DNA from: an uncultured Nitrososphaeraceae archaeon
GTDB taxonomy: Archaea; Thermoproteota; Nitrososphaeria; Nitrososphaerales; Nitrososphaeraceae
Assembly: GCA_963825865.1 (NCBI GenBank)
Contig: CAWGVG010000046.1
Coordinates: forward strand, 1 to 64,000
Direction of reading: 5' to 3'
Length of the DNA: 64,000 nt
The first letter of the stretch is position 1. Each line of letters starts with the position of its first letter. The notes under the pieces were generated by a model, which was not told where the DNA came from, did not search any database, and was given only the letters and a program-made list of their open reading frames with translations. Of the stretch, positions 30,163 through 40,418 are shown piece after piece. The position numbers and the translations under genes are program-made.

Positions 30163-31386
30163 ATGCAGGCTTGGACAATTTCAAGATGTCTCATTCTGCA
30201 ACCGTTTTTCTTGATTGTCACTATGGCAGTTATTATTATTATTATATTATACAGTTTGTCTTGGCCGACAAATGTCTTTGCTTTATCCCCTGCTTTTGGG
30301 CGCCAAGAAATAGCAAATCCCTGGTACCATTGGACAGATATGCAAAGTGGGGAGGAGACTAACATAGGACCTAACTATACAAATATACACTCAGTCACTT
30401 ACTCTAGCGATGGCAGGTTTTTAAATTCTACACTTTGGTTTCCCTCATTAAGCGGATTAACTTCATCAAATGGTAAGCCTTCTGCTGATGTTATAGCTTA
30501 TGGAATTATGATTGATGCTGATCTAAATGGCGACTCTGGATTCCAAGGAGTTGATTATGAGCTTCAAATTAGTTGGAACAACAACACCAAAGCATGGACA
30601 CAAACATTGATAGAGTATGCCTCAGATGGCAACTCGAGAAGAATTTCGCCAGCTGCTGACACTAACTTTACAGGTTTCACTGAGAAGGACAAAAATTATG
30701 TTAAATTAGATTTGGACTTGAAGTCCATACTTTATCCACCGCGATATAGGATATTCTTCTATGCCTACTCATTAGAGAATAATAAGAGTTGGCTCCTAGA
30801 CCCAGTCAGATGGATATATGTTCCACCACCTGAATTTTCTATGTCTACCTCACCAGCTACTTTAGATATAACGGCTGGAGACAAAGGCACCATTGAGCTT
30901 AATGTAAACTCGACCACAGGTTTTCAACCAACTGTTTATCTGGATATACCGTATCTGCCAGCAAATATTGGAGTAGAATATGAAAATGGAAACAAAACGT
31001 TAAAGATGCCAATTTATAATGTGGCTAAATCAAGCTTAGTTATCAATAGCGCAGCCAATATGAAGCCTGGCCTTCATACAATAGATGTATTCGGGAACGT
31101 AGTTTTTCAACCACAGTATTTTAAACCTCCATTCAGTGATTCTCCTATTATTATAAATCCTGAAAATATAACGACCAAGACAAGTTTCAATATAAAAGTA
31201 CAAAAAGCCCTAGAACCCTTAGAGAAAGTCCAACAAATGTGGAATCAAATAGGCGGTGTATTCAGTTTCATATATGTTCCTGCCGTGGCCATCATCGGAT
31301 GGATACTTACTAAACATGCAAAGAAGAGGCAAGAAAGATCAAGGGAAAGGAGAAAGAGTAAGCATTCTAATTCCGATAGTTCATAA
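30163..31386 (+). CDS. membrane-anchored exported protein
   Basis: N-terminal signal/TM helix, beta-rich body (YSSDGRFLNSTLW, IDAD..GVDY), C-terminal TM plus basic tail. Confidence 0.75.
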   Translation: MQAWTISRCLILQPFFLIVTMAVIIIIILYSLSWPTNVFALSPAFGRQEIANPWYHWTDMQSGEETNIGPNYTNIHSVTYSSDGRFLNSTLWFPSLSGLTSSNGKPSADVIAYGIMIDADLNGDSGFQGVDYELQISWNNNTKAWTQTLIEYASDGNSRRISPAADTNFTGFTEKDKNYVKLDLDLKSILYPPRYRIFFYAYSLENNKSWLLDPVRWIYVPPPEFSMSTSPATLDITAGDKGTIELNVNSTTGFQPTVYLDIPYLPANIGVEYENGNKTLKMPIYNVAKSSLVINSAANMKPGLHTIDVFGNVVFQPQYFKPPFSDSPIIINPENITTKTSFNIKVQKALEPLEKVQQMWNQIGGVFSFIYVPAVAIIGWILTKHAKKRQERSRERRKSKHSNSDSS

Positions 31387-31966: not shown

Positions 31967-33122
31967 TTACTCTACTTCCTCATCCTTAGCTGCTTTCTTA
32001 CTACCGCTGCCCTTCTTCTTCAATTCTTCATCCATATCATCTGATCCCCTTTCGTTTACAGTAAATCTCGCATCCGAATATGGATGGTAAGGAGAGTCTA
32101 TCATCTTTGCAACCCTATTTTCTCCAGATTTTCTAAGATATACCCTGTAAGTTGAAGCATGTCCTAACACATTTCCACCAGCTGCTTTTGTGGGATCTCC
32201 AAAGAAGGTATCAGGAGATGATTGCACTTGGTTTGTTATAACTATGGCAATGTTGTATATTTCAGCAAGTCTTATGATCTTGTGTAACATGCTATTGAGC
32301 CTCTGCTGTCTATCAGCCAATGTACCTCTTCCCGCAAACTCTGCCCTATGAAGAGAAATTATACTATCAATTATCACCAATTTCGCTTTAAAGTCATCGA
32401 CATATTTACCAAGGTTCTTTATTATTAGTTCCAAATGAGAGCTGTTGTAGACTTTGCACACTGCTACATTCTTTAACACTTGTAACTGGATCAAATCCTC
32501 TTGCTCGTGCTATCTCTTGTACTCTTTCAGGTCTGAACGTTCCTTCTGTATCTATGTATATTGTACTGCTATCCAGTCCACCTGATTCTATAGGCTGTCT
32601 AGCTATGGCACACAGAGTATGGCATATTTGTGACTTGCCAGAACCAAATTCTCCATAGAATTCAGTTACGGCCTGGGTCTCTATACCTCCGAGTAAGAGT
32701 TCATCAAGGGTACTAGAACCGGTAGAACATCTTAACAAGGATTTCCTTTTCTCTAGAGCTGCATCTGCAGTAACGAATTCTTTCTCCAACACTTTGGAGT
32801 CTCTTAATAACTTTTGGGCTGGCAATTATGAATGTACTAGCACTCTCTTTTGAAGCGTTAATGTCCACAGATAATTCGTCGGCAGTTGCTACTGCGAGAT
32901 CCATCACAGAGACAATACCTGCTTCTTTCAGCTTTTTAGCTGTCGTAGGACCAATGCCTTCTATGTCTTGTATCTCTAGTTCAATTATATCCAATGATGA
33001 AGTTTCAGATACTGTTGTTGCTGGCAGCAGGCAGCACTTGTATCACCCTTTATAGCAGTGATATTATTATTACTATTAGCAGTAGTAGATTCATTTTCTA
33101 CAGACGGTTTTCTATCCACCAT
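31967..33122 (-). CDS. radA: DNA repair and recombination protein RadA (frameshifts near 32480, 32820, 33025)
   Basis: Hh[65 protein letters not shown]; upstream frame extends to ATG at 33122. Confidence 0.95.
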
Positions 33123-33667
33123 ATGACGTTCGAACTACATATAATGAACGCTTGTATTAATATTGAAAGGTACCAAATAGGGGGGGAGGGCGGCGTGATA
33201 AATGAATGAATCTACAGGCATATACCACTCCTTATTCTTCTCACATTCTACCAATCATACCATTCTACCGCTCCTTTAGATAGTATCAAGCTGCTGCTTA
33301 ACAATGAACAGAATATAAAAAAAACAAACTGTTAATAAGAAAAATTAGTTAGTCAGACTATCATAACGGTGAGAATATGCAGGTGTAATCAACGGCCATC
33401 AGTCACAGCCGTACCATCTAAAATATAAAAATTGGCTAGTGTATATACCTTAACGGTTATTATTTTAATATGATCAATATAGTAGTTATTTTAGTACAAT
33501 CCATAAATCTTAACATAGAAAAAGAGAACCAAACTTAAAATAGCCTATCAATAGAACCTCAAGATCCGAGGTACTTTTTCAAGAATTCTAAATATAATAA
33601 GCGCTATAGAAAACAGGCTGGAAGAGATGATAACAGAAAAACAAAACAAAACAAACAACCAAGCTAA

Positions 33668-33887
33668 CTAGCTTGATGGCATTTCACAAAGATCAGCATA
33701 GAAATTGCTCCCATATACGAGGCCGAACTTTTTGAACATAATTACACATTCCTCTGAATCGAACACGTAATGCGAATCCATCAATTATCTCTTTGATTAC
33801 CGTAACTTTTTGTCCTTCTTCTTCTCCTTCGCGTCCTACCAAGGTCTTTCCGCATAATGCACATTTAGCTTGTATTTTTTCGGCCAT
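33668..33887 (-). CDS. stand-alone TRASH-like metal-binding protein (frameshift near 33777)
   Basis: corrected translation CALCGK...IIDG/SHYVFDSEECVIMFKKFGLVYGSNFYADLCEMPSS*. Confidence 0.75.
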
Positions 33888-34213
33888 TGTGATGTTATCT
33901 TTTTTTATTTTTTATTTTATTCCACCTTACTGCGCTATCATAGGTAAGACTTGCTTCTGCCTCCTGCTTACTTCTTTTCATCTCTTTTTTCCTCATCAAC
34001 AATATTAACGCCATTATTATGATCTTTCACTGATAGTACTTTCCTTGGAAGTATATATTTAGATCCTTTTATTTCGCCTGTGAATTTTATTATATATATA
34101 TCATACTTTTTATTGTTTTTGCTACTTGTTTCTATACTTAGGAACTTTCAACAGCCACATCCACACATAATTTTAAATTCCTTTATATATCAATAAGTAG
34201 CATTTTTAGCATA

Positions 34214-35189
34214 TTGACTAGCTGTATTGCTTTTCATTCTTATAAGGGCGGTACTGGTAAGACAACAATAGCTGCCAATCTTGCTGCCTTATTAGCAAAA
34301 AAGGGGTATCGTGTATTTTTATTAGATCTTGATGTATATGCGCCCAGTCTTCAAGCTTATTTTGGAACTAAACCAAAAAGATGGATTAATGATTTCCTAA
34401 ATGGTCACTGCAGAAGTTGGAGACGTAGTAATGGACACCACACACATGGTAGAGGAAATTAATAGTAATAAGAAAATAGCTGGAAAATTATGGGTTGGCT
34501 TCTGCAGTTCAAAGAAGGAAGAAATTTACAAACTCGAGGGTAGTACTGGTGGTGGAAAGCAAGATAGTTCAAAGATACAGTTGCTTAGAAGGTTTATACT
34601 TTTGAGAGAACAACTGATTTCGCTGCATGACGCTGAATATATCATAATTGACACTAGCCCAGGTATAAGATATTGGTCAATAAATGCACTGGCCGTTGCA
34701 GATACACTCTTTCTAACCCTCAAAATGGGTGATCTTGACATTGATGGTACAAGAAAGATGGCTGACGAAATCTACGGATCCTTTACAAAGTTCGGCGCCA
34801 AGTCCTATCTTGTAATGAACAGGGTGGCTGGCTATTGTGTACCCCACTATGATATCATGTCTGCTTCTCAGATATCATCACCATCACCATCCCCATCCCC
34901 ATCATCACCAGCTACCTCTAATACTATTACGGATACTGATGAATCACGATCACATCACAATCAAAAATCTGCCATTACAGTGCAGCAACAAAAAGATGAA
35001 ACAAATACTATTAGCAATACGCTGTCTAGCGAAGTGGGAATGGATGTAATTTCTTCTATTGCATGCTATTGCGATATTCAATTTACTAGTAAAGAATTCT
35101 TAACTGCTATTAAATATCCGGACCATCCTTTTGCAAAGCAAATTGAACGGCTAATAGAAAAAATGAAAACAATGCCAACTAAAGCTTAA
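34214..35189 (+). CDS. MinD/ParA-family ATPase (frameshift near 34405)
   Basis: deviant Walker [32 protein letters not shown]. Confidence 0.9.
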
Positions 35190-35243
35190 TCCTTAAAAAA
35201 ACATAAAAAAAGTATATAGATGACGAATTAAAGACTTCAATTA

Positions 35244-36882
35244 ATGCAGATTCCGGGTATATCTGATCTCTTAGATAAAGGAACTATTCCTGATAGCGTG
35301 CTACTCCTTACCGGTCCTGCTGGAGCAGGCAAAAGTATGTACTGCAGACAGTTCTTTGCAGACGGCTTATTTGACAGAGATTATTGTATTTATGTCAGCT
35401 CCAATTTAACTGATAAGCAGTTTAGAAGTCAATTCTCTAATATTGAAAAGTTAAAGCTAATTGAAAATTCCAAATTTATAAACCCATATCTATACCACAC
35501 AGATCACCTTAATAGTCAAGAATATTCTTCTCCTTCGTCTTCGTCGTCGTCGTCTTCTTCTTCCTATTCATTTACCATTTCTGATAAAAAGAATGAAGAT
35601 AATGATGATAAAACAGGTGGTGGCGGATTGGACAATGACAACATCAAAAAATTATCATTGACTTTAGCAGAAATTCGTGATGATCTAATCAAGGCAAAAA
35701 AATTTGTCCGTGACGATAATAATAATAATAATGTCAGTATTAATAATAATATTCATCATCCTGCATATCCTTTTTCTTCTTCTTCTTCTCCAGATGGCAA
35801 TAATAGGTCTGTTCGCCTGATTGTTGATTCTCTGACACACCTTTTGGTGCTATTTGGACAAAGCGCTGTGTTGAAATTCGTCAACGATCTCTCTTTTCTT
35901 TTGAAAGAGTTTGGAGCAATGGCAATTTTTACATTGACTACTCCATTATCAAATGAGTATTTGACCAATGCTTTAAGTTCTATTTTCGATGGCATAATTG
36001 AAATGAAGCTTGAAGAACATGGTGGATCTATGACTAGGAGTATCAGACTGCTTTCGATCAAGGGTCTGCACCATAACCCTTCATGGATCAATTTCAAAAT
36101 CTCTGATGATGGCAGCCTGGCATTTGCTGACCAATCGTCTTCGTTGACCTGTATGTTATGTGGAAAATCAATTTTGGGCACACCTATATTTGATTCTGAA
36201 TTTACATTTGACAGTCAAAGCTGTTTAGAAACATACAAAAAACTTGCAGTAGTTTATGGTTCGAATATATCAGAAATTGGACTACCCTCAGAGGTCGTAA
36301 ATGTGAACTTTTTCTTTATAGACATAGTAAGCCTTTCAGATCCTTCTTTATCTATTAAAAAACAAAGAGAAAAGATCGAGGTCCTGAACAAAATGATTGG
36401 TTCTTGTGATGCCTACTTCAGAACACCCAGGGACAAGAAGATTATTCTCCCCACAGGAGATGGCATGGCTATAGGTTTTTTGTTGAATATAGAGCTACCT
36501 TTTCAACTTAGTATTCAACTCCACCGAAAACTTAGGGCATACAATCGTGGCAAATCCCCCGAAGAATTTATTGGAGGTACGAATCGGTTTAAGTTCTGGC
36601 CCTGTGTTTGTAGTCAATGACATAAACGATAGGCAGAATGTATGGGGACCAGGGATTATACTTGCCCGCCGCGTTATGGACATAGGTGATAACTACCACA
36701 TATTATTAGCAGAAAGAATAGCTGAGGAATTGATTGCACTCAAAGATGAATACAGAGCATCCATAAAACCCGTCGTCGATTATCAGATTAAACATGGCCA
36801 AACAATCAAATTGTATTCGGCTTTCTCGAAGGAATTTGGAAACCCAAAACCACCAGCAAAGATTATTGAACGTTATTATTAA
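35244..36882 (+). CDS. KaiC/RAD55-like ATPase fused to a TRASH-like domain and a class III nucleotidyl cyclase (frameshift near 36572)
   Basis: GPAGAGKS, RLIVDSL, FDGIIEM, RSIRLLSIKG; CMLCGK..FDSQSC; FFIDIV, PTGDG, VRIGLSSGPV, NVWGPGIILARRVMD, IKHG. Confidence 0.88.
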
Positions 36883-37395
36883 AAGAGAAAGTACACTAAA
36901 GCAAGCGAAATAAAAAATTTATTAGAGAAAACACACTTCTTTGAACTTCCTTCAAAGCTGTGACAGTCTTCTTCTAAAACAACAAGAGGCGCAGCTGATT
37001 ATTTTGTATATAAAATCACAATTCAAAATAATAATAATAATAATAATAATCAAAGCCAACACTCTGTGGAATGCAATGATGTCAATATTCAACCCACTCT
37101 CAGACCGCTTATTGATATTTTGACCAAATATTTGCGAAAATGACGTAACAAGTATTGGCTACACTGTATATAGCTATCTTTAATTGTCAGGTCAGATAAA
37201 TTTTAGCAATATCAAATATTTTCTTGCCAGAAAGAGAGACATGTTGTATAATAAACGATTTTTTAGCATCACCATTTCTTTGACCATATTTCTGACATAC
37301 TCCCTACGTTAAAGCCTTGGGGTTCTGGTGTCTGTATCGTTTTCTACAGTTGCACCTTTAAGCGTATCAGTGCTCGCTTTCCAATGTATCTCTGT

Positions 37396-38260
37396 CTACA
37401 TTGGATTGATCTCTGGTGGATATGCGCAATACGATATCGGTTTGCCAATATTGAACGACGCATTAACATCTCCATGATCAACGTGTCCATTTGGACACTC
37501 AAATCTTTTATCGTCTCTTTTGCCTATATGTCCACACCTAGAACATGTTTTTGACGTATAGCGTGGATCAATATATTCAACGATTATCCCTTGCAGCTTG
37601 TCCTTGTATTCTATAAACTTCTGAAGTTGATAGAATGACCAACTGTTCAAAGAATAACGAAAACTTTTGACATGCCTCTTGCCCTTTCGAATGTCCTGCA
37701 GTTTTTCTAGCCTTATACTAGATTTTGCACTACTTGCTGTTTCGACTATCTTTTTACTAATATGGTGGTTAAGGTTCCTAACGATCCTGCTTTCTCTATT
37801 TTTTATCTGTTTAACCTTTCTATACTTACCTCGTTTCTGCAATCCTTTCCTAATGTGTTTATATTTTGTATGAATATGCTCAGCAATCTTTCCTAATTTC
37901 CAAACCTTGCCTGTATCTGGATTTGATATAACTGCTATATGACCTGTAGTATTCAAGTCCACTCCAAGATATCCGTTATTGTTAGCATAATAACATTGTT
38001 GGTGGTATTCTTCTTTTTCTTTGACTGAAACAGAAACATATGCATACTCTTCACCAATTTCTATCTGGTTTACATTTTCAAAAGAATGTGGAATTCGATA
38101 TTCAAACGAACACTTTAGACACGGTATGCTTATCATCCTTAAGACTCTAAATCTAGTTTAATGCCTTGATTTGGAATTGTTAATTTGATATTCTTCACCT
38201 GTCTGATTACTTTGTTTCTACCATACTTTCGAAGTATCTGGTTGGATATAGCTGACTTTA
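37396..38260 (-). pseudogene. tnpB: RNA-guided endonuclease TnpB, N-terminally truncated
   Basis: LGVDLN, NHHISKKIV, IRLEKL, WSFYQLQKFIEYK, TSKTCSRCG, DVNASFNI. Confidence 0.9.
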
Positions 38261-38450
38261 TGATGTCCATACCAAGGACATCATATCCATACTCTTGTCT
38301 GCTTACCTAGAATCAGTTCTTTCAGCCTTGAAGCAATATCCTCTGTTAATACTTTCCTTCTATACTTTGGACAGAATATAACATGATACTGGGAGCTATA
38401 TACTAAATGGCTATCTGTCTTATACTGCTTTGGATAGTTCTGGATATACG
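38261..38450 (-). pseudogene. tnpA: IS200-type Y1 transposase TnpA, N-terminal fragment
   Basis: HLVYSSQYHVIFCPKYRRKVL; ends before the HUH motif. Confidence 0.9.
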
Positions 38451-39100
38451 TATTAATTATATGATAATCATGTATATAATGATTTAGATATATGTTGTAG
38501 TAATGCCGCAATTCATCAAGTCTCTAAGAGAGCTGGCTTTCTTGCGTCTTCCAGTAAGATTCTTATCATATAGAAAAAGTGAGAATAAGAAATAGAATTG
38601 GTGATGAGATCTGTGTGATATCAAATAGTACATTATCTACATTTTCTCTGAACCTTTTTATTTTCTCAAACAACAACATTTTCTTTTCTTTTCTTATCTC
38701 TTCATCCATCATCCATCCATACTTTCATAAACTCAATTGTAAATCCCACTGTCATACTAACTGTTAATAGTACACCAAGGTTTGCCATTGCTCAGTCATT
38801 ATATGGTCGCCGACATATCCAATAGTACGTCCTACTCCAGTATTGGTTGGAACTTGAGAAGTTGTATTTGCAAGGAACAAATTTCCTAGAGATTGTTTTT
38901 TTGTATAGAACTCTATAGTTAATTCAAAGTATAAAGATATGGAATTGTGTCTTTTTTATTTTTAAACAAAGCATATTTAATTATTATTATTATTATTAGA
39001 ATGAAAAACTTCTCATTAACTGCAGTTACTGCAGTAACTGCAAAAGTGACTGCAGGCAAGCCAATAATAATGCAAAAGAAAGTTTTAAGGAGTGAAGGTG

Positions 39101-39678: not shown

Positions 39679-40418
39679 ATGATATTTGAGTTAATAAGTC
39701 GTAAATTTCAGTTTAAATTCAAAGATAGAGTTGCTGCCAGCTGACATCTTAGGAGAGTCTTTAAAGGGCAGAGTTAAAAATAGAGAAGAACAAAAAACTG
39801 CAGTCGTTTTGGGTATTCCACGGGGTGGAGTAATAACAGCTGATATTGTAGCAAAGAAGTTGTATACCCCTTTCTTTGATATTATTATTCCAAGAAAACT
39901 TACAGATCCGGATAACAAAGAGCAAGGAATAGGTGCCATTATGGAAGATGGTACTACATATATTGACCAGCAATTGATAAATGATTTGCAAATATCTTCA
40001 GAGTATGTAGAAAAAGAGAAACTAGAACAAATACAAGAGATTAAGCGCAGGACTGCATTATATCGTAATGATCCAACAAGAAAGGATTTTTTCAGTTCTT
40101 CTTTTCTTAAAGATAAGACTGTAATTTTAGTCGACGATGGAGCTGCAACTGGAGCAACCATTATTGCTGCCTGCCAGATGGATAAAGCAACTAGAAAACA
40201 AACCTAAACGTTTGATAATTGCTATTCCTGTAGCTCCAAAAAGCACAATAAACTTACTAAAGAAAGAATGTAACGCAGAAGTTGAAGTTGTAATCAGTCC
40301 ATCTTCTACATTTCATTCAGTCGAACAATACCATCAGAGCTTTCAACCCATTCCAGATGAACAGGTTATCAGAATTATGAAGGACAGAAACATATTACCA
40401 CCATATTCAACATCATAA
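39679..40418 (+). CDS. phosphoribosyltransferase family protein (frameshifted)
   Basis: FKDR, VLGIPRGGV, PRKL, VILVDDGAATGAT, IAIPVAP. Confidence 0.9.

Follow-up and report, generated by a model that had tools for sequence, protein, structure and literature searches.

The DNA analysed here, referred to as the window, was a stretch of 64,000 nucleotides from an uncultured Nitrososphaeraceae archaeon (GenBank assembly GCA_963825865.1, contig CAWGVG010000046.1, positions 1 to 64,000 of the forward strand). Between 33668 and 36882 it carried three genes, which are interpreted below as a candidate signalling module centred on a protein that joins a KaiC-like domain, a metal knuckle and a class III cyclase-homology domain (CHD). 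The fusion gene occupied 35244–36882 on the forward strand and encoded 545 amino acids (aa) on read-through of a frame break. Its first part, a KaiC/ArlH-like single P-loop domain of the RecA superfamily (aa 1–295; 35244–36128), was recognised by Pfam PF06745, by a profile comparison with PDB and by Foldseek; the second, a TRASH-like metal knuckle (aa 296–342; 36129–36269), by a CxxC motif followed by F-D-x3-C and by hhalign; and the third, the CHD with a C-terminal tail of the form HGQ…FGNP (aa 343–545; 36270–36882), by PF00211, a profile match to Ma1120 and Foldseek. Along the protein, the motifs were GPAGAGKS (aa 24–31), LIVDSL (192–197), C303xxC306, F322-D-S-x-x-C327, FIDIV (358–362) and TGDG (404–407).

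A gene for a ParA/MinD-superfamily ATPase (34214–35189, forward strand; Pfam CbiA, ParA and AAA_31, with a deviant Walker A motif) lay directly upstream, and 54 base pairs (bp) separated its end from the fusion ATG at 35244, as the first-pass annotation of this DNA had reported. Beyond an AT-rich divergent intergenic region (33888–34213), delimited from the sequence, a small stand-alone TRASH/YHS-like protein of ~70 aa was encoded on the reverse strand (33668–33887), its two halves lying in two frames; the same annotation had pointed out this divergent protein, and it was recovered here as a paralogue of the fusion linker. The divergent arrangement of the small gene and the MinD-like gene was also found in two relatives, G017 and G016. 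A search of the whole window with Rfam returned nothing at gathering scores.

Conservation and integrity of the fusion gene

The fusion is a single intact gene in relatives and is conserved in the family. In a first draw of 40 relatives, every one of the 24 same-family genomes gave a match, with open frames of 470–552 aa that contained no stops. The wider draw produced matches in 105 of 121 family genomes (E ≤ 1e-40), representing 18 of 18 genera; when the unpublished genomes G050 and G092 were removed, this became 103 of 119. Close relatives bore the database names Nitrososphaeraceae and Ca. Nitrosopolaris. The three-part architecture that had been proposed in the first-pass annotation was therefore upheld, with all of its motifs in place. 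Beyond genomes, 1022 matches at E ≤ 1e-5 were obtained among the 8000 scored from a metagenome protein collection, some of them carrying the JGI name 'KaiC/GvpD/RAD55 family RecA-like ATPase/class 3 adenylate cyclase'; a library clustered at 50% held about 23 full-length representatives; and the ESM Atlas contained two clusters (134 and 74 members) with both Pfam families, all archaeal, for which Nitrososphaerota was the commonest phylum. With this query, 300 genomes from the rest of the phylum yielded no KaiC-CHD fusion, and G211 was the only one of them with a match spanning the knuckle and the CHD. Family f13 had the CHD subfamily in 16 of 43 genomes, and 15 of the matches were CHD-first proteins of 370–490 aa.

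All three genes were interrupted in the window as assembled. The fusion gene was represented by two overlapping open reading frames (ORFs), 35244–36620 (458 aa) and 36547–36882 (111 aa), in frames +1 apart. Alignment with P0002, an intact metagenome protein of 550 aa that was 97% identical to the window protein over its full length and read …KSPEEFIGVRIGL… across the break, identified the cause as one surplus base in 'ggagg' at about 36575. A single indel had been suspected near 36572 at the outset, and both this alignment and the contigs of three DNA runs described below bore that out. An alternative position for the break, in the C-run at 36557–61, was ruled out by the P0002 alignment and the contigs, both of which led to 36575. 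The first read-through (P0001) contained six wrong residues (439–444); later analyses used P0002 and intact orthologues. Reading through the fusion gene encountered no stop codons. The MinD-like gene was likewise split into ORFs 34214–34462 and 34401–35189 by one surplus base at 34405/6, while the small TRASH-like gene read MAEK…IIDG in one frame, then HYVFDSEEC…VYGSNF in another, with the frameshift at about 33776–33779. A gene for RadA, at 31967–32994 on the reverse strand (Pfam Rad51, 152 and 112 bits on two pieces), consisted of three overlapping ORFs; this added two more breaks, giving five single-base breaks within 5 kb.

Contigs covering 33600–37000 were compared from three DNA runs belonging to three studies (X1, X2 and X3) and from one RNA-library run (X15), all soil metagenomes with word shares of 0.27–0.49; the contigs were 90–99% alike to the window and may represent sister strains, and the best-matching run may be the source sample itself. 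The base at 36575 was missing from all covering contigs (depth 21.1/21.1 in X1, 6.95/6.95 in X2 and 5.81/5.81 in X3), and all four runs lacked one letter at 34405 or 34406. A contig from the RNA library covered the small gene (33708–33944) with one gap. The other indels listed within the large ORF were multiples of three (GGT, 9 letters, GAT, TTC and GGC), while the listed indels that were not multiples of three, besides the breaks, occurred at 34090 (two letters) and 35195 (one letter), both of them intergenic. The cyclase might have turned out to be a separate gene; instead, the independent contigs showed one gene.

On these comparisons, the frameshifts in the window are likely to be assembly errors, which are far more plausible than decay, because independent contigs lacked the surplus bases and because an intact protein of 97% identity exists. 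The same is argued by the density of the breaks, five in 5 kb with two of them in a housekeeping recombinase, RadA, and by the source genome (G000) being only 81.8% complete. It is very improbable that the insertions of single bases are real and the module is decaying here, with all three genes true pseudogenes of the strain. The assembly does contain the frameshifts, remnants of IS200/IS605 follow shortly downstream and the contigs, being only 90–99% alike, perhaps derive from other strains; yet the contigs of all three studies agreed in lacking the surplus bases, and the stop-free read-through gave no further sign of decay. Since the assembly is full of single-base insertions, broken genes within it should not be taken as pseudogenes.

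Domains of the fusion protein

The KaiC-like domain was identified by Pfam with 68.7 bits on the 5' piece and 67.8 bits on the read-through (PF06745, cut-off 26.6), and likewise on P0002 and two distant intact members; the domain profile found KaiC itself in PDB at 5e-22. Walker A (G29, K30) and Walker B (D195, S196) residues were invariant in the alignment. An AlphaFold2 (AF2) model of P0002, based on 43 sequences, had a mean predicted local distance difference test (pLDDT) score of 76.6, rising to about 90 in the KaiC core; a variable, low-complexity insert at aa ~88–190 fell below 50 and was disordered in the model. The top Foldseek matches of this model were KaiC, FlaH with ATP, PH0284 and SSO2452 (TMt 0.67–0.72). 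The domain therefore resembles ArlH/FlaH, PH0284 and SSO2452 in having one RecA-type P-loop domain with Walker A and B motifs, and there were partial NCBIfam matches to the FlaH, ArlH and KaiC_arch models, although these were all below cut-off; among the KaiC-type models, KaiC scored 59.7 against 408, thermo_KaiC_1 46.3 against 307 and ArlH 36.8 against 215. The family differs from the ArlH/FlaH group in its low-complexity insert of 100 aa, in its fusion to a cyclase-type domain, and in a locus without archaellum or Kai partner genes.

Within the linker, C303 and C306 were invariant (17/17 and 43/43 rows). The second half of the knuckle varied: the window and closer relatives had F-D-S-x-x-C, whereas other members had F-H-x-x-H. 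The seven rows with the His variant formed a single clade (support 93/82) in a knuckle-CHD tree built from 16 knuckle-CHD rows and five CHD-only outgroups, none of which was dropped; a protein from G211 that lacks the KaiC-like part sat in a polytomy of the same tree. The replacement of D…C by H…H in one clade means that two putative ligand positions changed together, once, to other metal-binding residues. The canonical TRASH pattern has four Cys, spaced C-x2-C-x19-22-C-x3-C. The pattern observed here, C-x2-C-x15-32-F-D-x3-C, is unlike it in that Asp takes the place of the third Cys; in the one clade, His…His make up the last two ligands. When 12 linker and small-protein rows were compared by hhalign with eight TRASH-matching regions of related genomes (five of these over the Pfam cut-off), they aligned over 46 columns at 93.8% probability (E = 1.8e-7), placing FD..C on FCC..C. 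A TRASH model scanned genome-wide gave the window linker 10.9 bits. AF2 models folded the knuckle as a beta-hairpin and a helix. By its sequence, then, the linker is a divergent TRASH/YHS-like knuckle in which the third Cys has been replaced, and it is predicted to bind metal. It shares the CxxC knuckle, beta-hairpin, F-x-x-x-x-C and helix with TRASH and YHS domains (PF08394 and PF04945); its scores, in contrast, are under the Pfam cut-offs, its third Cys position holds Asp (His in one clade), and it forms an internal hinge between enzyme-like domains rather than the terminal module of a regulator or transporter.

The alignments also identify the small gene as a free-standing paralogue of the fusion knuckle. 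Its relatives were sub-threshold in Pfam (Arc_trans_TRASH 21.5 bits, cut-off 27; YHS 20.6 and 16.7 bits, cut-off 30.3), and Pfam returned no match at E ≤ 1 for the piece of the small ORF in the window. Intact orthologues of 55–77 aa were found near the module in four of the eight larger loci (G017, G016, G014 and G003), and a small paralogue was also present at the edge of locus G068.

The CHD was matched by PF00211 on the read-through with 27.2 bits (cut-off 21.9) over aa 353–515, equivalent to positions 8–170 of the 183 in the profile. The 3' piece alone scored 21.8 bits, just below the 21.9 required, while P0002 and two distant intact members scored 24.6, 28.0 and 24.3 bits. In the comparison of the CHD profile with PDB, the best solved relative was Ma1120 of Mycobacterium avium (1.4e-6), which was also in the Foldseek list. 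The knuckle-CHD protein of G211, 252 aa long, was modelled with a pLDDT of 87.2, and its Foldseek matches at ranks 1–50 were exclusively class III adenylyl or guanylyl cyclase domains; isolated catalytic domains matched with TMt of about 0.7–0.83, and rank 1 was the CHD of Rv1900c from M. tuberculosis (TMt 0.79–0.83). Three residues, D360 (FFFIDIV), D406 (TGDG) and R476, were invariant (17/17 and 43/43 rows) at identities down to 44%, and D406 aligned to the GDG Asp of Ma1120. The fold, the pair of metal-binding Asp and the Arg are therefore common to the family and to Ma1120 and Rv1900c; the family differs, as known here from sequence, in being no bare catalytic domain, since it possesses the HGQ…FGNP tail and an N-terminal knuckle and KaiC-like domain. 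This tail, past the core of the CHD (36780–36879, aa ~513–545), was conserved, K-H-G-Q and F-G-N-P being invariant or nearly so, and it was also seen in a CHD-only paralogue.

The source genome contained 16 places that matched PF00211, 15 of them over the cut-off (e.g., C18:41177-41716, C3:1645-2136 and C24:35643-36131), which is a large expansion of class III cyclases for an archaeon. The closest paralogue of the CHD (L039:889-2100, reverse strand, equivalent to G000:C33) was a protein of 403 aa with the CHD at its start, FFFIDIVGLSDPS, GDGMAIGF and WGPGIIxARR being motifs common to both; its C-terminus comprised a region of 200 aa without a Pfam match, and the CHD-first proteins of another family are similar to it. 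One cyclic nucleoside monophosphate (cNMP)-binding domain was found in the same genome above the Pfam cut-off (G000:C20:4942-5202), and the protein that carries it is a possible candidate receiver, judging by this domain.

The MinD-like neighbour

The product of the upstream gene matched the Pfam families AAA_31 (73 bits), CbiA (55 bits) and ParA (52 bits), and its orthologues were intact in relatives, at 290–340 aa. Alignments showed a deviant Walker A motif with the signature Lys, and invariant K11, K16, D38, D40, DTSPG, C217, C297, C299 and H317, the invariant Cys lying in the motifs GYC and IPCYCDIQF. Profile comparison with PDB returned Soj (9.5e-12), FleN and archaeal MinD (both about 3e-9) and a homologue of Mrp. 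By these matches the protein is a member of the ParA/MinD superfamily. The first-pass annotation had called it MinD/ParA; the superfamily assignment stood, but no curated MinD or ParA model reached its NCBIfam cut-off (minD_arch 56 against 201.75, minD_bact 38.7 against 212.9, ParA_partition 61.6 against 180, AAA_KGGVGR 71.3 against 90). Like Soj, FleN/FlhG, archaeal MinD and Mrp/ApbC, it combines the deviant Walker A and signature Lys with switch I and II. Unlike them, it has the invariant GYC and IPCYCDIQF motifs, a variable insert rich in Ser and Pro, and a cyclase-like neighbour, without a MinC/MinE or ParB partner; no such partner gene was conserved beside it in the loci of relatives that were examined.

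Linkage was surveyed using one fusion locus from each of 38 relatives, these being the best-scoring matches rather than a random sample. Thirty-seven could be judged, the locus of G057 having been left out of the count as it stops at the start of the gene. The MinD-like gene was directly upstream of the fusion, on the same strand, in 24 of these. Synteny outside the module was not conserved; the exceptions were RadA, kept in the closest relative, and, in some genomes, a gene for a phosphoribosyltransferase. In the window, a gene with a phosphoribosyltransferase domain lay at 39731–40207 on the forward strand, 3 kb downstream of the module.

The pairing recurred outside the family. In G211, which belongs to another family, a MinD-like gene of 289 aa with the same motifs (L078:603-1472) directly preceded the 252-aa knuckle-CHD gene (L078:1501-2259), whose product was 67% identical to the window protein over the matching part. 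Among the 300 genomes from the rest of the phylum, a full-length orthologue of the MinD-like protein (475 bits, profile 1–305) was present only in G211; the other 52 genomes with a match contained MinD-like relatives of 250–290 aa that scored about 110–170 bits. The link between the two genes is strengthened by G211, because it retains the pair without KaiC and because the full-length orthologue occurs only there in the 300-genome sample. These relatives belong to a wider archaeal subfamily of MinD-like ATPases of ~260 aa (L085:1465-2271, L087:1294-2079 and L088:1282-2067), which shared the Walker A and an IPC[YF]C[DE] motif and adjoined small winged-helix proteins.

Other features lay around the module in the window. 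Downstream of the fusion there were two IS200/IS605-type remnants, both on the reverse strand and both apparently truncated: a TnpB-like ORF with a Cas12f1-like TNB domain (37396–38136, 77 bits) and a fragment of a Y1 (IS200-like) transposase (38281–38511, 32 bits). An ORF of 407 aa on the forward strand (30163–31386) was hydrophobic near its N-terminus, rich in N-x-S/T sites, and ended in a hydrophobic anchor with a basic tail; it had no Pfam match at E ≤ 0.001, and from these features it is probably a surface protein.

Proposed working and alternative readings

The locus is best explained as a conserved signalling module, in which an ATP- and metal-gated cyclase would be at work, the base of its product being left unpredicted; from the sequence evidence, a probability of about one half is given to this reading. 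ArlH and FlaH have been described as ATP-binding platforms for oligomerisation that hydrolyse slowly or not at all, and the KaiC-like domain would serve as such a platform. Class III cyclase domains act only as dimers, with their active sites at the interface, so that the nucleotide state of the platform could decide whether the tethered CHDs pair or are held apart. The metal knuckle, at the hinge between the two domains, would make this pairing dependent on metal occupancy, and the free small paralogue might act as a metal donor or as a competitor for that contact. The MinD-like ATPase, from a superfamily of ATP-dependent dimers, would be the likeliest direct partner or regulator. The product would probably be a cyclic nucleotide, although the non-canonical specificity residues prevent a prediction of its base. 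A bolder version of this scheme, in which a non-hydrolysing KaiC-like ring reads ATP, a TRASH-like hinge reads metal (plausibly copper, given ammonia oxidation) and, with a Cys-motif MinD-like partner, the gated cyclase makes a product other than cAMP or cGMP through its altered pocket (a hydrophobic residue and Asn replacing Lys and Asp), is improbable.

Several observations weigh against a gated cyclase. Only three of the six canonical catalytic or specificity residues are kept in the CHD. The base-specifying Lys/Glu position (K101 of Ma1120, in the numbering of its paper) is L/I/F402, the position of Ma1120 Asp157 is an invariant Asn465, and that of the transition-state Asn is Ile472, followed by the Arg that is kept (R476). 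Judged by these residues, the specificity pocket fits neither the ATP nor the GTP pattern, and differs from that of Ma1120, which keeps the ATP-selecting Lys and Asp. The transition-state Asn, in contrast, is absent from both. According to its published description, Ma1120 is an active adenylyl cyclase with Ala164 at this position, and the A164N substitution drastically lowered its adenylyl cyclase activity and abolished guanylyl cyclase activity (PMC4215837); the missing Asn is therefore not disqualifying. When compared with PDB, the profile of the N-terminal half of the CHD found no cyclase, only chance matches to uL23 (E = 0.17 and 1.9), and for this reason D360 was assigned from a known motif together with the fold match and the coverage of the Pfam profile. 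The second-messenger synthase of the first-pass annotation thus retains its pair of metal-binding Asp and its Arg, and is made uncertain by the other three positions.

The KaiC-like domain presents a comparable difficulty. The catalytic Glu pair of KaiC (E318/E319 in CII) is opposite Ser/Asn and Leu in the window protein; KaiC 'ILFAYEESRA' corresponds to 'iyisssltek' in the family consensus. Because this pair is absent, the domain is taken, from the alignment, to be probably a binder of ATP with little or no hydrolysis, so that the label of KaiC-type ATPase survives as regards PF06745 and the Walker motifs and not as regards turnover. The linker scored 13.6 bits against Pfam TRASH, below the cut-off of 27, and no NCBIfam model reached its cut-off for any part of the protein; calling the linker TRASH thus agrees with the hhalign result and strains the Pfam thresholds and the missing third Cys. 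Contigs from the RNA library (X15) covered parts of all three genes at a depth of 2–4, but these may be DNA carry-over and do not establish transcription.

Gene order, which had been expected to be conserved, was so in the majority of relatives and in the KaiC-less pair of G211; the MinD-like gene was, however, unlinked to the fusion in 13 of the 37. These exceptions comprised nine g16 genomes (all of that genus-level group), two g3 genomes (both members), one g11 and one g13. Four of the 13 were searched, and a MinD-like orthologue was found elsewhere in three, G015 and G077 (g16) and G002 (g3); it was not found in G010, a genome that is 72% complete. In G015 and G077 a phosphoribosyltransferase gene directly followed the MinD-like gene (L064:2553-3251 and L065:2526-3224), with the fusion elsewhere, which suggests that the fusion gene moved out of an older order of MinD-like gene, fusion and phosphoribosyltransferase. 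A complex of fusion and MinD-like proteins was also predicted, using the pair from G014. The median ipSAE was 0.43 (runs of 0.52, 0.43 and 0.00), against 0.00 for the best control; the runs had at least 64% of their contacts in common and the pLDDT of the partner was at least 68. Of 80 solved complexes, 58 reach the mark applied, as do two of 110 mismatched pairs; at values of 0.60 or less, only seven of the 80 reach it, together with both mismatches. Given this, and one run at 0.00, the model lends weak support to the pairing. The spatial positioning that the first-pass annotation had suggested is accordingly weakened, as the neighbour also stays below every curated MinD or ParA cut-off, and would be conjecture.

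The degenerate positions listed above are what would be expected if the CHD were non-catalytic, binding nucleotides or dimerising within a pseudo-cyclase scaffold, and the fusion were an ATP- or metal-sensing KaiC 'hub' adaptor, working by contacts with other proteins such as the MinD-like ATPase rather than by a second messenger. The canonical Lys, Asp and Asn are replaced family-wide, the KaiC-like part has also lost its Glu pair, so that both 'enzymes' look degenerate, and sequence comparison with the N-terminal half of the CHD, owing to its divergence, retrieves no cyclases. This must be set against the invariance of the metal Asp pair and the Arg down to 44% identity, given that pure scaffolds usually lose them, and against the example of Ma1120, an active cyclase without the Asn; moreover, CHDs of this subfamily form part of many further architectures and the genome has an enlarged set, with 16 places, as for an output enzyme. 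A scaffold is a serious candidate, but an unlikely one. Metal might otherwise be the primary signal, rather than ATP or position, with the MinD-like ATPase, the free knuckle and the fusion knuckle passing or sensing, for example, Cu, Zn or Fe-S, and the cyclase only reporting metal status. Such a metal-handling module overlaps with the gated cyclase and draws on the three Cys and one His that are invariant in the MinD-like protein, on a knuckle resembling TRASH and YHS, families named for heavy-metal binding, on ligand positions that co-vary (D/C to H/H), and on the persistence of the MinD-like gene beside a knuckle-CHD gene where KaiC is absent (G211). Ammonia oxidisers depend heavily on copper, which would accord with it. 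It was nevertheless considered improbable, as PC[YF]C[DE] is also found in MinD-like relatives of other families beside winged-helix proteins, with no TRASH nearby, so that the motif is not specific to the module; as the third TRASH Cys is Asp here; and as no genes for metal transport or chaperones were conserved near the module in the loci examined.

A role in anti-virus defence of the cyclic-nucleotide kind, with the cyclase signalling on infection, is scarcely credible. The layout of a cyclase with a P-loop ATPase is also known from defence systems and there are transposon remnants nearby, but PADLOC returned nothing meaningful (on the P-loop part, mad8 with 17.3 bits; PDC-M28B with 34.5 bits, confined to the Walker A region; nothing on the CHD), no effector gene was conserved adjacent to the module in the loci examined, and the gene, present in 18 of 18 genera and mostly in a syntenic position, does not show the patchiness of defence islands. 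The gated cyclase, with its product base unspecified, accordingly remained the preferred reading.

Multi-domain class III cyclases, following a principle credited to the review by Bassler et al. (2018), place a C-terminal CHD under the control of a fused N-terminal module, and the fusion has the same arrangement; a KaiC-like or TRASH-like module in the controlling role was not found in the literature searched. That literature also contained no description of the KaiC-knuckle-CHD fusion or of its MinD-like partner, consistent with what the first-pass annotation had said of the architecture, although the main survey of KaiC-like fusions (Makarova et al. 2017) may list the fusion. The available part of one study describes class III cyclase clusters that are family-specific, with extra copies in one genus, and makes no mention there of KaiC (PMC13577086); its supplementary tables may name the family. 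Another states that class III enzymes are very scarce among the cyclases predicted in archaea, and that most archaea probably rely for cAMP on an enzyme yet to be identified (PMC8646023). As its domain composition indicates, the fusion would be a class III cyclase-type protein with a new regulatory front end, already auto-annotated in databases.

The making and use of cyclic nucleotides by archaea is for the most part an open matter, and here a whole family of soil ammonia oxidisers, abundant organisms, conserves a class III-type domain. One CHD subfamily is tied to two parts that are thought typical of archaeal signalling, a KaiC-like domain and a ParA/MinD-like ATPase. The fusion protein is soluble and of about 480–550 aa, with intact orthologues in complete genomes, and it bears on the use that archaea make of class III cyclases, on what such a cyclase would produce, and on whether KaiC-like 'hubs' may drive a second messenger.

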